DNA of 64,000 bases from Candidatus Heimdallarchaeum aukensis (GCA_021513695.1 CP084166.1:2272001-2336000); one strand, 5' to 3'. Numbered from the stretch's first letter, positions 57,848 through 61,609 are shown. The notes: generated by a model from the letters alone, not told the origin. Made by a program: numbers and translations.

Positions 57848-58441
57848 CTATCTAATGTATATCTCTCTAAATTTCAAAACCTTTTCTTCACTTTGGATAG
57901 CTAATCTTGCAGCATGAGAAAAAAGTTTTTCAACATTTTCAGATGATAATGCAGATGTTTCTATATAATCAAAATTATTTTCTTTTGCATATTCTTCTGC
58001 TTTTTCTCTGTCTACAGCTCTTGCATTTTTTAGATCACTCTTATTTCCACATAAAATAATTGGAATTTCTGAACATTTTTTCTTTATTTCACTAACCCAA
58101 AAGGATACATCATCAAATGTTGACGTTTTAGTAATATCATAGACTACGATAGCAACTTTAGCTCCTAGAAAATATTTTTGTCTAACAAATCCAAAAATTT
58201 CTTGAGCTCCTGTATCCCATAAACTAATTCTAACATTAACATCATCGGTGAGTATATTTTTAGACAAATTTTCATTTAATTCGTCCTTTGTTAAGGAAAG
58301 ACTTTTCGTTAACCAACTCACACCCATTGTTGGGATATAAGAATATGAGAAAGTGTTCATAGCATATCTTCTTGCCAATGATGTTTTTCCTACAAAAGCT
58401 GAACCAATTGTTATAATTTTATACAAATGTCGTTCTATCAT
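57848..58441 (-). CDS. Rab/Ras-like small GTPase with variant G3 motif
   Basis: G1 GSAFVGKTS, switch I YIPTMGVSW, G3 WDTGAQE (canonical DTAGQE), G4 GNKSD, G5 ETSAL. No C-terminal Cys. ATG at 58441 preferred, 2 nt after the upstream gene's stop. Confidence 0.8.
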   Translation of the reverse strand: MIERHLYKIITIGSAFVGKTSLARRYAMNTFSYSYIPTMGVSWLTKSLSLTKDELNENLSKNILTDDVNVRISLWDTGAQEIFGFVRQKYFLGAKVAIVVYDITKTSTFDDVSFWVSEIKKKCSEIPIILCGNKSDLKNARAVDREKAEEYAKENNFDYIETSALSSENVEKLFSHAARLAIQSEEKVLKFREIYIR

Positions 58442-58443
58442 TT

Positions 58444-59292
58444 TTATCTCCAAAATATTTCTATTAGTTTTCTTTCTATGTTGATACTGCTTAAACGCCT
58501 CCAATCATCGAGAATCAAAGGCTTTGTATTCGTATTGATTAATTCTCTAAACTGTTCTGGTTCAAAATACTTACTAGTGATATCAACAAATTCTGAAATG
58601 AAATTAAGGAATGTCTCCTTTATTTGGCTATAATCTTCAATTTCTGTTATTTCTGTTGAGTTTACTTCATCTCTTATAAAGAACCCTTCTTTGTCAAAGA
58701 AAAATAACTCGTCAATTTTTTTGTAATCATTTATTAATTTATTAACATCATTTCTTAGTAACTGATTAATTTTTTTCCTTTTCGATTGATCTTCCACAAC
58801 TTTTTGTATTCCTGAACATACTGAATTTATTATATTCTCAAATATTTCTAATAAATTTCTGAACTCAATATCTTTGATGTGATTAGATATAATAGCGTTC
58901 ACTTTGAAAACTTCGGAAATCACCATAGATGGCGATAAGGGTTTTTTTACTTGTTTAATTTCATCAAGGAAATTTTTAGCAGTTTCTTTATCATAGATGT
59001 CAAAAGAGTATAGAAAGAGATTCATTAAAAAGAATAATTGAGAATACGCCATTCCTTCTTTTTGCTCTTGGGAGATTAGTACAAATATGAAATCATACTT
59101 CTTTTCAACTAAAACAATTGTTTTCTTAAAAATTATTTCTCTTAATGGTCCTAATTCTCTTTGTTCTCCCATCTTTATGAATTTTAATAGTTCCGCAAAT
59201 TGGTCAGGTTTAAGAATTAAATTTTCACTATTAGGCGTGTCTGTAAAGATAGTATCGTAGTTATTTTTGTTGAGTATGTAAAAATTAACCAA
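58444..59292 (-). CDS. hypothetical protein, N-terminal longin/Roadblock-like module; candidate GTPase partner
   Basis: 282 aa. MVNFYILNKNN...KTIVLVEKKYDFIFVLISQEQ...SQLFFLMNLFLYSF. Tightly coupled to the downstream GTPase. Confidence 0.5.
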   Translation of the reverse strand: MVNFYILNKNNYDTIFTDTPNSENLILKPDQFAELLKFIKMGEQRELGPLREIIFKKTIVLVEKKYDFIFVLISQEQKEGMAYSQLFFLMNLFLYSFDIYDKETAKNFLDEIKQVKKPLSPSMVISEVFKVNAIISNHIKDIEFRNLLEIFENIINSVCSGIQKVVEDQSKRKKINQLLRNDVNKLINDYKKIDELFFFDKEGFFIRDEVNSTEITEIEDYSQIKETFLNFISEFVDITSKYFEPEQFRELINTNTKPLILDDWRRLSSINIERKLIEIFWR

Positions 59293-59419
59293 TTAGTACA
59301 CCTTTCTATAATTACTTTTAAATAAATTTAAACTTATTCCTTCTTTAGATTCTGCGTTAACTTTGCCAGTTTCTATTTTTCTTCTATAAATTTTAAAAAG
59401 TATAAAAAAAGATAGAAAC

Positions 59420-61609
59420 TTATGTAAAACCTATTCTCGGACTTGTAGATAATTGCGTAGTTTTCTTGAATCTTTCTGCAACTTTATCATAATACTTGAG
59501 CACATCTGGAGTTACAGTAGGATGGATGTTTTTTAGTGCTTCCTTGAAATGTGCAGCTTTTACTTTTGTTGCGTTAAAGTCTTCTCTAAGAGCTCTCATA
59601 CCAGCTTCTCTGCACAGAGCCTCAATATCACTTCCTACAAATCCATCTGTTACTTCTGCAAGTTCCTTGATGTTAACATCTTCAGCTAAAGGCATATTTT
59701 CAGTATATATCTTAAATATCTTTTCTCTTCCCTTTTTGTTAGGTGGTTTGATATATATTAATCTGTCAAACCTTCCTGGTCGTAGAAGAGCTGTATCAAC
59801 CATGTCCGGTCTATTTGTTGCAGCTAAAACTACAATGTCTTTTAATTCTTCTAGCCCGTCTAATTCTGTGAGTAGTTGGCTTATTACTCTTTCAGTAACA
59901 TTACTATCACTTGACATTCCTCTTATTGGTGTTAGAGAGTCAATTTCATCAAAAAATATGATTGATGGAGCAGCCATTCTCGCTTTACGAAATACCTCTC
60001 GTATGGCTTTCTCTGATTCTCCTACCCATTTTGATAATATTTCAGGACCTTTAACACTAATGAAGTTCGCTTCGCTTTCTGTAGCTACTGCTCTTGCAAT
60101 AAGTGTTTTTCCACATCCTGGAGGACCATAAAGTAATATCCCTCTTGGTGGTTTAATTCCTATTTGTTTAAATGCTTCAGGATGAGTCAAGGGCCATTCA
60201 ATTGCTTCTCTTATCTCTTCTATAACTTTATCCAACCCACCAACTTTAGAAAATGGAACGTTTGGTGATTCAATAAATACTTCTCTCACGGCTGTCGGTG
60301 TTATCTCTTTTAGTGCATTAATGAAATCTTCATGTGTAACTTCTAGTTTATCTAAAATCTCAACTGGGATTTTCTCCTCATTTAAATCGATTTCTGGAAG
60401 AACTCTTCTTAATGTTTTCATTGCACTTTCTCGGCATAGAGCTTCAAGATCTGCTCCAACATAACCGTGTGTGACATCAGCTAGGGCTTTTAAGTCAACA
60501 TTTTCAGCTAAAGGCATTCCTCTTGAATGAATTAAAAGAATTTCTTCTCTGCTGTCTCTATCTGGAACATGGATCTCAATTTCTCTGTCAAACCTTCCTG
60601 GTCTTCTAAGTGCAGGATCAATAGCGTTTGGTCTGTTTGTTGCTCCAATAACAATTACTTGTCCTCTTGATACTAATCCGTCCATTAGAGCTAAAAGTTG
60701 TGCAACAACTCGTCGTTCAACTTCACCAGTTACATCTTCTCTTTTTGGAGCAATGGCATCTAACTCATCAATGAAGATAATGCTTGGAGAGTTGTCTTCT
60801 GCGTCTTTGAATATTCCTCTCAATCTTTGTTCTGATTCACCATAAAATTTACTCATTATCTCCGGCCCATTTAATACAATAAAATGAGCTGCAGATTCAT
60901 TAGCTACTGCTCTTGCAATAAGTGTTTTTCCACATCCTGGAGGACCATGTAGTAACACTCCTTTTGGAGGATCAATGCCTAATTTCTCAAATAATTCTGG
61001 ATGTTTTAAGGGAAGTTCAACCATTTCCCTTATCTTCTGAATTTCAGAATGTAATCCTCCTATGTCCTCATAACTTATTCGAGGACCTCTTTTTTCTCCT
61101 TCGATAACTGGTTTTTCTGCTACCTTTAATTGTGTGCTCTCTGTTACTACTACTATTCCTTGTGGAACAGTTGAAACAACACTGAAAGGTATTGCTCTTC
61201 CTAAAATAGGAATTAAAACAGTATCTTTTCGTGATAACGGTTGTCCTAATAATTTACGTTTAACGAAATTTTCAAAACTAAAGTCTATATTAACAGACAT
61301 CGATTCAGGAGCTAAAGTTACTTGTCTAGCTACACTTACCTGTGCCTTTTTTACTACAACTTTATCTCCTAAGGATACACCAGCATTTCGCCTAATTACT
61401 CCGTCCATTCGTACAATTTCTTTTTTTAGATCTTCAGGATAAGAAGGCCAAGCTACTGCTGTTGTTTTTCTTTTTCCTGTGATTTCTACAATATCTCCTG
61501 TTGATACCCCAATTTTAGACATTGCTACGCTGTCTAAACGAACTTTTCCTCTGCCTACATCTCTCTGTTTAGCTTCAGCTACTCGTAATACTATTTCCTT
61601 TTCGGCCAT
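59420..61609 (-). CDS. cdc48: CDC48/VCP-type AAA+ ATPase
   Basis: Double-psi-barrel N-domain ([20 protein letters not shown]), two AAA modules each with GPPGCGKT Walker A, Walker B ([16 protein letters not shown]) and second-region-of-homology arginines. Confidence 0.92.

Follow-up and report, generated by a model that had tools for sequence, protein, structure and literature searches.

In a 64,000-nucleotide (nt) stretch of the genome of Candidatus Heimdallarchaeum aukensis, hereafter the window, we identified a candidate two-gene module on the minus strand (59292..57848), which would produce a longin-domain protein ("the partner") together with its cognate Rab-like small GTPase. Modules of a longin regulator and a small GTPase are known as such; three features are unusual here: the helical domain of the partner is novel, the G domain is distinctive, and the GTPase has naturally fixed a Gly-to-Ala substitution in switch II. 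We tentatively favor, at somewhat less than even confidence, a cognate complex in which the partner acts in the manner of a guanine-nucleotide exchange factor (GEF), and in which Ala79 of the GTPase damps GTP-driven switching and favors the partner-bound state in the Heimdallarchaeum clade. Asgard genomes encode dozens of small GTPases as well as longin and roadblock proteins, and the matches between regulators and GTPases are mostly unassigned. Genome layout rarely helps: the small GTPase genes of MK-D1 generally do not share operons with genes for roadblock, longin, or TRAPPC3 proteins, which makes it hard to match GTPases with their regulators (Tran et al., PMC10933270). At the locus described here, the layout does help.

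The ORF list (ORF, open reading frame) and the sequence of the window revealed three co-oriented ORFs on the minus strand in the order CDC48, partner, and GTPase. The gene for a CDC48/VAT-type double-ring AAA+ ATPase of 729 residues (59420..61609) is followed by a spacer of 127 nt (59293..59419, read directly from the sequence) between its stop codon and the TTG start codon of the partner gene (58444..59292). The partner consists of 282 residues and matches, at 100% identity, a hypothetical protein in the databases, K9W45_10475 (P0121). Its stop codon TAA (58446-58444) is followed by the dinucleotide AA and then by the ATG of the GTPase gene (57848..58441), leaving a gap of 2 nt. The longest possible ORF of the GTPase opens at TTG 58504. 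However, we assigned the start to ATG 58441, because the deposited annotation and every orthologue agree on it: the translation from this codon matches the deposited 197-residue protein (P0001) with 100% identity and coverage, and the equivalent Met is the start in all GTPase orthologues. An earlier interpretation made from the nucleotide sequence by itself (the sequence-only reading) had already described the gene trio, the ATG start at 58441, the 2-nt distance between stop and start codons, and the 127-nt distance to CDC48, all of which we confirmed. The ratios of nonsynonymous to synonymous substitution rates (dN/dS) between the window and H. endolithica are 0.009 for CDC48, 0.090 for the partner, and 0.049 for the GTPase. 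Because of these low ratios and the presence of orthologues in 20 GTDB species, the three ORFs are real genes under purifying selection and not chance ORFs.

CDC48, partner, and GTPase genes are found in the same order and on the same strand in all of the 24 distinct loci that we compared (20 GTDB species plus metagenomes). The pairing of partner and GTPase, which the sequence-only reading had put forward from a single genome, is thus syntenic throughout. The gap between the two genes is 2, 4, or 5 nt in every locus. A Shine-Dalgarno-like GGAG (58448..58451) lies within the last two codons of the window partner, TGG AGA (Trp-Arg), 6 nt before the ATG of the GTPase. Where we inspected junctions with flanking sequence, namely in L029-L032 and the window, the partner ends with the codons TGG AGx or TGG CGG, placing GGAG or GGCGG 6-9 nt ahead of the GTPase start. 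The C-terminal Trp-Arg codons of the partner (58447-58452 in the window) would thereby double as a GGAG-like ribosome-binding site of the GTPase gene in these loci. In L032, the Arg is replaced by Ser (AGT) and GGAG is retained, hinting at a constraint at the nucleotide level on top of that at the protein level. The gap of 2-5 nt and the GGAG in the terminal codons of the partner suggest that the two genes are probably translationally coupled. The genes of the trio differ greatly in evolutionary rate. Relative to the window, CDC48 is 84-99% identical across the loci and the GTPase 56-92%, and the identity of the partner is 83% in H. endolithica and 28-33% in all others.

The GTPase matches the Pfam family Ras (PF00071) with an E-value of 1.1e-45 and 155.6 bits against a cut-off of 21.6. 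Its best matches in the PDB are all Rabs, with that from Thorarchaeota (7EZB, 2.4e-33) as the nearest in sequence, followed by Rab11, Rab35, Rab5, Rab6, and Ypt1. By eye, the RabF5 (VVYDIT) and RabF4 (YFLGA; YYxGA in the orthologues) motifs are close to the consensus, and RabF1-3 are recognizable only in part. The orthologues form 29 clusters of 195-199 residues with 56-71% identity and occur exclusively in Heimdallarchaeaceae. The P-loop GSAFVGKTS (G1, residues 13-21; 58379..58405) agrees with the pattern GxxxxGK[ST] and is shared by the entire family except for one member with GNAFVGKTS. It carries Ala at the position of Ras G12 and Phe (Phe16) at that of Ras G13. Rabs possess Ser-Gly or Ser-Ala at these two positions, and the P-loop of the eukaryotic Rabs included in the family alignment reads GDSGVGKS or GDQGVGKS. 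Apart from G3 (see below), the G domain is complete, and like G1, the motifs G2, G4, and G5 show almost full conservation in the family. Switch I reads YIPTMGVSW and contains Thr38; G4 is the NKSD (residues 133-136; 58034..58045) within GNKSD, and G5 is ETSAL (residues 161-165; 57947..57961). The Asn, Lys, and Asp of G4 and the entire ETSAL are invariant in a 13-sequence alignment, and the larger cluster alignment adds SK in place of NK in cluster P0020 and ESSAL in several clusters.

A family-specific insertion of about 13-15 residues, LTKDELNENLSKNILTD (58244..58294), was identified from the alignments in the interswitch region, at the turn between β2 and β3. Its pattern is LT-x-E-x-LNENL-T/S-K..., with Asn56, Asn58, and Lys61 invariant in the family, and it is absent from the Thorarchaeota Rab and Rab11B in HMMER alignments as well as from the other eukaryotic Rabs that we aligned. 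The window GTPase ends with LKFREIYIR, and the family has a conserved tail resembling L-K-F-R-K-E-Y-I-L. None of the aligned family members has a C-terminal Cys for geranylgeranylation. The Rab-like motifs listed in the sequence-only reading (GSAFVGKTS, YIPTMGVSW, WDTGAQE, GNKSD, and ETSAL) are all present, and the lack of a prenylation Cys noted there applies to the orthologues as well as to the window GTPase. Some loci with Gly-Gly in G3 (see below) contain an additional short Ras/Roc-like ORF of 116-124 or 96 residues, e.g., at 7385-7735 in L011 and as a 96-residue ORF after the GTPase in L016. These ORFs adjoin the main GTPase gene or lie a few kb downstream of it and are possibly truncated duplicates.

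The G3/switch-II motif of the window GTPase reads WDTGAQE (residues 75-81; 58199..58219), in which Ala79 is encoded by GCT (58207..58205). All of the 29 orthologue clusters have WDTGGQE but four, P0001, P0002, P0003, and P0006, to which WDTGAQE is confined; the eukaryotic Rabs that we retrieved mostly have WDTAGQE. Among the 24 loci, 19 are Gly-Gly and five are Gly-Ala, the latter being the window, L013 (H. endolithica, with a 92% identical GTPase), L001, L004, and the P0006/L107 lineage. The window GTPase accordingly deviates from the DxxG pattern of G3 with DTGA, and DTGG is found outside the Heimdallarchaeum and P0006 lineages. Judged from the alignments, DTGAQE is a single Gly-to-Ala substitution at the position of Ras G60 in a family that already has Gly at the position of Ras A59. 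The sequence-only reading had instead interpreted the motif as a permuted G3 with the glycine displaced by one position. This interpretation is wrong, because the orthologues read DTGGQ and none of them shows DTAGQ, so that there was no swap of Ala and Gly. The Ala itself is conserved within the clade.

We constructed a neighbor-joining tree of the GTPases, which is distance-based only, with 100 bootstraps. The window sequence, L013, L001, and L004 are grouped at 71%, and P0006 is placed apart from them, beside the Gly-Gly sequences P0004 and P0007. Parsimony points to Gly-Gly as the ancestral state and to one, possibly two, origins of the Ala. The four clade members encode Gly-Ala by GGA GCT, GGA GCA, GGG GCA, and GGT GCC. 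Since these codons differ, the Ala has persisted through synonymous turnover, and by the evidence of these sequences it is fixed in the Heimdallarchaeum clade and maintained under purifying selection. DNA encoding W-D-T-G-A-Q-E occurs at 90 sites in the 241 million metagenome records that we scanned; only four of these sites are located in GTPases, all belonging to this GTPase family. A literature search for DTGAQ or DTGGQ in the context of GTPases retrieved no report. A pseudoGTPase was ruled out, as the G3 glycine alone is altered, G1, G2, G4, G5, and Gln80 are intact, and the gene is under purifying selection.

For the partner, searches of Pfam, NCBIfam, and PDB sequences gave no match above threshold. 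A full HMMER profile search of 1.84e9 representative proteins retrieved only 10 clusters at 50% identity, mostly of 263-287 residues. When one genome per GTDB species was surveyed, the partner was found in 20 species, all labeled as Heimdallarchaeota or relatives, including AB_125. We modeled the structure with AlphaFold2 using a 13-sequence alignment, which resulted in a mean predicted local distance difference test score (pLDDT) of 79.7; an earlier model from five sequences had a pLDDT of 55. In the model, residues 1-114 (58951..59292) adopt the longin topology β-β-α-β-β-β-α-α, residues 116-130 form a low-confidence linker, and residues ~135-282 (58447..58890) are helical with a single β-hairpin. 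The block-mean pLDDT of this helical domain is 80-94, with a dip at residues 212-217. Foldseek matched the model to longin families with E-values of ~1e-3 and the helical domain to nothing; a fold search with the five-sequence model also returned longins only. The assignment of the N-terminus of the partner as a longin domain, based on the predicted structure, is solid and bears out the longin-like N-terminus proposed in the sequence-only reading. The GEF/GAP-GTPase pair suggested there is plausible. The partner is not "minimal," as it had been called, since a second conserved domain, which is helical and of unrecognized fold, makes up over half of the protein.

The Pfam family Fuz_longin_1, which represents the first longin domain of FUZ, MON1, and HPS1, appeared below threshold in seven of the 13 partner members, at best with an E-value of 2.4e-4. 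For the window partner, the score is 14.8 bits, short of the cut-off of 26.1 that applies to this Pfam longin family. A Mon1/Fuzzy/HPS subtype of the longin domain is therefore a lead and not proof. Residues His138, Asn146, Glu149, Asn153, Trp264, Arg266, and Trp281 are invariant in up to 13 full-length members, and Arg145 is nearly so; His138, Arg145, Asn146, Glu149, and Asn153 are located on one long helix. Fold searches detected no similarity of the helical domain to TBC, RasGAP, RhoGAP, or any other solved fold, and the window contains no second copy of the partner.

Several known classes could be excluded for the partner. GTPase-activating proteins (GAPs) of the longin type, FLCN, NPRL2, and SMCR8, carry a GP motif in the β1-β2 loop and an arginine finger in the longin domain (PMC12290439). 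The aligned partner members (13-24 sequences) have the loop N-K-N/E-x-x-D/E without a GP motif and no invariant Arg within residues 1-115, which rules out this class. A DENN protein was ruled out because the partner lacks the α/β core domain. A RabGAP of the TBC type was ruled out because the spacing of IxxDxxR is mismatched by eye in HIKDIEFRN and there is no fold match. A longin-SNARE similar to Ykt6 or Sec22 was ruled out because the partner lacks a hydrophobic anchor at the C-terminus, where the helices form a compact bundle in the predicted structure.

Based on the gene arrangement, the predicted fold of the partner, and the G3 substitution, we suggest the following mechanism. The pair would be expressed from the A/T-rich promoter-like box and the Shine-Dalgarno sequence preceding the partner gene, and the GTPase would be translated via the GGAG in the terminal codons of the partner. 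We infer that the two proteins most likely form a complex, in which the Mon1/Fuzzy/HPS-type longin domain may engage the switch and interswitch face of the GTPase, including the family-specific insertion, and the helical domain of the partner may supply the rest of the interface or catalytic residues. The partner would most likely act as a platform for nucleotide exchange, as the eukaryotic longin RabGEFs do. By analogy with Ras G60A, Gαs G226A, and Gαi G203A, Ala79 would make switch II close less readily in response to GTP and would reduce the rate of intrinsic hydrolysis. The GTPase would also be biased toward an open state like that bound to a GEF, making it more permanently associated with the partner.

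The amide of the G3 glycine binds the γ-phosphate, and the flexibility of this residue lets switch II close. The G3 motif of Gα subunits is DVGGQ, which becomes DVGAQ by the G226A and G203A substitutions. Ras G60A resides in "state 1," which is inactive, and its GTPase activity is severely reduced (PMC4867591). In the GTP-bound form, this mutant resembles nucleotide-free Ras on its exchange factor, and binding to the effector Raf is lost (PMC7067412). In Gαs G226A and Gαi1 G203A, the GTP-induced conformational change is prevented and binding to βγ is stabilized (PMC5022103). The change in the Heimdallarchaeum GTPase is the same and at the same G3 position, and the Gα mutants even share the Gly-Ala dipeptide. 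The engineered mutants bind nucleotide, fail in the GTP-induced change, and retain their partner. They differ from the present case, in which the Ala is naturally fixed and under selection in a wild-type protein, and the orthologues have Gly.

Four observations weigh against this mechanism. Thr38, Gln80, and the other catalytic residues are kept in the Ala clade, suggesting that hydrolysis still matters and that the Ala may be tolerated or compensated. The partner evolves far faster than the GTPase in the same species (28-33% versus 56-71% identity), which would be unusual for a tightly co-adapted catalytic interface. The best-conserved polar residues of the partner reside in the helical domain and not in the longin domain. 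Finally, the partner contains a single longin domain in place of the three tandem ones in each subunit of RabGEFs of the Mon1-Ccz1 type, and the profile search of 1.84e9 proteins uncovered no paralogous second subunit, although a homodimer would be possible.

The main rival to damped switching is that the pair is indeed a cognate module but that the Gly-to-Ala substitution is nearly neutral, with normal cycling; the flexibility of Gly78 might suffice, or Phe16 in the P-loop together with the partner might alter how switch II is used. We consider this unlikely, though it is the strongest of the alternatives. The Ala arose in a Gly-Gly background, possibly twice, and Gln80, Thr38, and the other G-motif residues are conserved at a dN/dS of 0.049. 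Furthermore, the invariant residues of the partner show no obvious clade-specific compensating change. Against near-neutrality, none of the 19 other loci and none of the eukaryotic Rabs that we retrieved deviates from Gly, which shows that the position is normally strongly constrained. Moreover, the change from DVGGQ to DVGAQ makes Gα defective despite the preceding Gly (PMC5022103). The same result leaves the idea that a glycine displaced by one position might serve as a substitute without backing.

Alternatively, the partner could be a GAP or an effector or scaffold for the GTP-bound state, either inserting the invariant Arg266 (or Arg145/Asn146) of the helical domain as a catalytic finger or binding the GTP form through the longin domain, as in SRX-SRβ and MglB-MglA. 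However, both marks of longin-type GAPs, the GP motif and the longin Arg, are absent from the partner, and the helical domain has no similarity to TBC, RasGAP, RhoGAP, or other solved folds. We regard this alternative as improbable.

A further alternative joins all three genes into one unit, in which the longin protein and the GTPase would regulate or localize CDC48, e.g., as a nucleotide-gated adaptor of the unfoldase. The upstream gene is a bona fide CDC48: it contains the Pfam domains CDC48_N, CDC48_2, and two copies of AAA with AAA_lid_3, and it scores 1090 bits for NCBIfam TIGR01243 against a cut-off of 802.65, which places it in the CDC48/VAT family. It lies immediately upstream in 24/24 loci, and the trio is intact even where both flanks are rearranged (the window and L013; L006, L011, L025, and L028). 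However, the spacer suggests otherwise. In the window, a T7 tract (59410-59404) just past the CDC48 stop codon is followed by an A/T-rich TATA-like box (~59334-59314) and by GGTG (59302-59299), located 6 nt before the TTG of the partner. The spacer varies from 108 to 240 nt across the 24 loci. In each of them, T-tracts follow the stop codon of CDC48, the start of the partner gene is preceded at a distance of 40-55 nt by a conserved A/T box (ttaaacaaatttttaagtataaa or aagtttaaatttatt), and GGTG/GGGTTG occurs as a further element. The T-tract and TATA-like box pointed out in the sequence-only reading are thus features of every locus. This arrangement agrees with a terminator of CDC48 and, after it, a promoter that serves the pair, so that CDC48 and the pair are likely transcribed separately.

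In addition, most genomes are collinear over ~10 kb, as revealed by clustering of neighboring ORFs (methylase, small ORF, Fer4_5 protein, CDC48, partner, GTPase, CBS protein, FrhB-like, CofE, and TPR), and the adjacency to CDC48 may therefore be merely the inherited gene order of one family. CDC48 itself evolves like a housekeeping gene (dN/dS of 0.009; 84-99% identity), and we recognized no known CDC48-binding motif. A functional link to CDC48 is possible but weak, and we judge a single three-gene unit to be still less probable than a GAP or effector role of the partner. Last, a sequencing or assembly error or a decaying gene as the source of DTGAQE can practically be excluded, since nothing speaks for it and this Ala is shared by two closed genomes, by several metagenome assemblies that are independent of each other, and by a second lineage, with four different Gly-Ala codon pairs and a GTPase dN/dS of 0.049.

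How does the candidate complex, with Ala79 damping the switch, compare with known systems? The tri-longin RabGEFs Mon1-Ccz1, BLOC-3 (HPS1-HPS4), and CPLANE (Inturned-Fuzzy) act on Rab7, Rab32, and Rab23, respectively, whereas the partner has a single longin domain and an unrelated helical domain. It also differs from them in the lack of a detected paralogous subunit and in a similarity that remains below the family thresholds, and its GTPase has no prenylation Cys. MglA-MglB and SRβ-SRX likewise combine a small GTPase with a roadblock/longin regulator or effector. However, MglB and SRX are single-domain proteins of ~130 residues, MglB being a GAP and SRX binding the GTP form, whereas the partner has an extra domain of 150 residues and the GTPase is Rab-like, not MglA- or Arf-like. 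The Thorarchaeota Rab (7EZB) resembles the window GTPase in being archaeal and Rab-like and in lacking a site for prenylation, but differs in having DLAGQ and no interswitch insertion according to the HMMER alignment; we found no conserved operon partner for it in the literature consulted.

An Asgard operon of a LAMTOR1-like roadblock protein, a Rab-like GTPase, and a DENN protein was proposed to be an exchange-factor module (Liu et al., bioRxiv 10.1101/2020.10.19.343400). It is likewise a conserved Asgard cluster that joins a protein of the roadblock/longin superfamily to a Rab-like GTPase. Unlike that operon, the present locus lacks genes for DENN and LAMTOR1-like proteins; its partner combines a longin domain with a novel helical domain and is restricted to Heimdallarchaeaceae, and CDC48 lies upstream. 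The two are not identical, as the gene content differs.

The surroundings of the trio show several other features. In H. aukensis and H. endolithica, the TPR-CofE-FrhB-like block (55175-57795 in the window) is inverted with respect to other Heimdallarchaeaceae (L016-L031). Upstream of CDC48, the same two species have, in place of the Fer4_5 protein, a flavoprotein (61781-63499) that resembles CoA-disulfide reductase and carries a rhodanese domain. A 93-residue ORF (63665-63946) clusters with the CBS-annotated protein of ~386 residues that is found downstream of the GTPase elsewhere. The C-terminus of CDC48 (59420-59440) ends with SPRIGFT and has no clear hydrophobic-Tyr-X tail. Just upstream of the FrhB-like gene, an ORF on the plus strand (54141-55121) with a TTG start resembles cytosine-C5 DNA methyltransferases, with FSGAGG and PPCEPF recognized by eye. 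The window also encodes a second small GTPase on the plus strand (29066-29632; 188 residues), which is of the Arf type (Pfam Arf, 4.8e-18; P-loop GPSLAGKTT) and could be an Asgard Arf-related GTPase. Its neighbors are a 125-residue ORF on the opposite strand (28547-28924) without a Pfam match and a weakly AMP-binding-like ORF (29654-30994).

The occurrence of the longin protein and the GTPase within 2-5 nt of each other in every Heimdallarchaeaceae genome examined defines a cognate pair amenable to expression and assays. Mutation of the switch-II glycine is a textbook loss-of-switch lesion, and the natural Gly/Ala polymorphism at this near-invariant position makes it possible to test directly to what extent a Rab-like fold depends on the glycine. 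Lacking any recognizable relative, the helical domain of the partner may be a regulator module of a new kind. In the most far-reaching interpretation, which we consider improbable, the Heimdallarchaeum GTPase has naturally fixed the classic "dominant-negative" switch-II Gly-to-Ala substitution and is a partner-locked, weakly switching protein, the helical domain is a type of regulator not seen before, and the Gly-Gly orthologues keep the ancestral switching. If this were true, the family would provide a natural before-and-after pair for a GTPase-regulator module turning constitutive, in the archaeal group nearest to eukaryotes.

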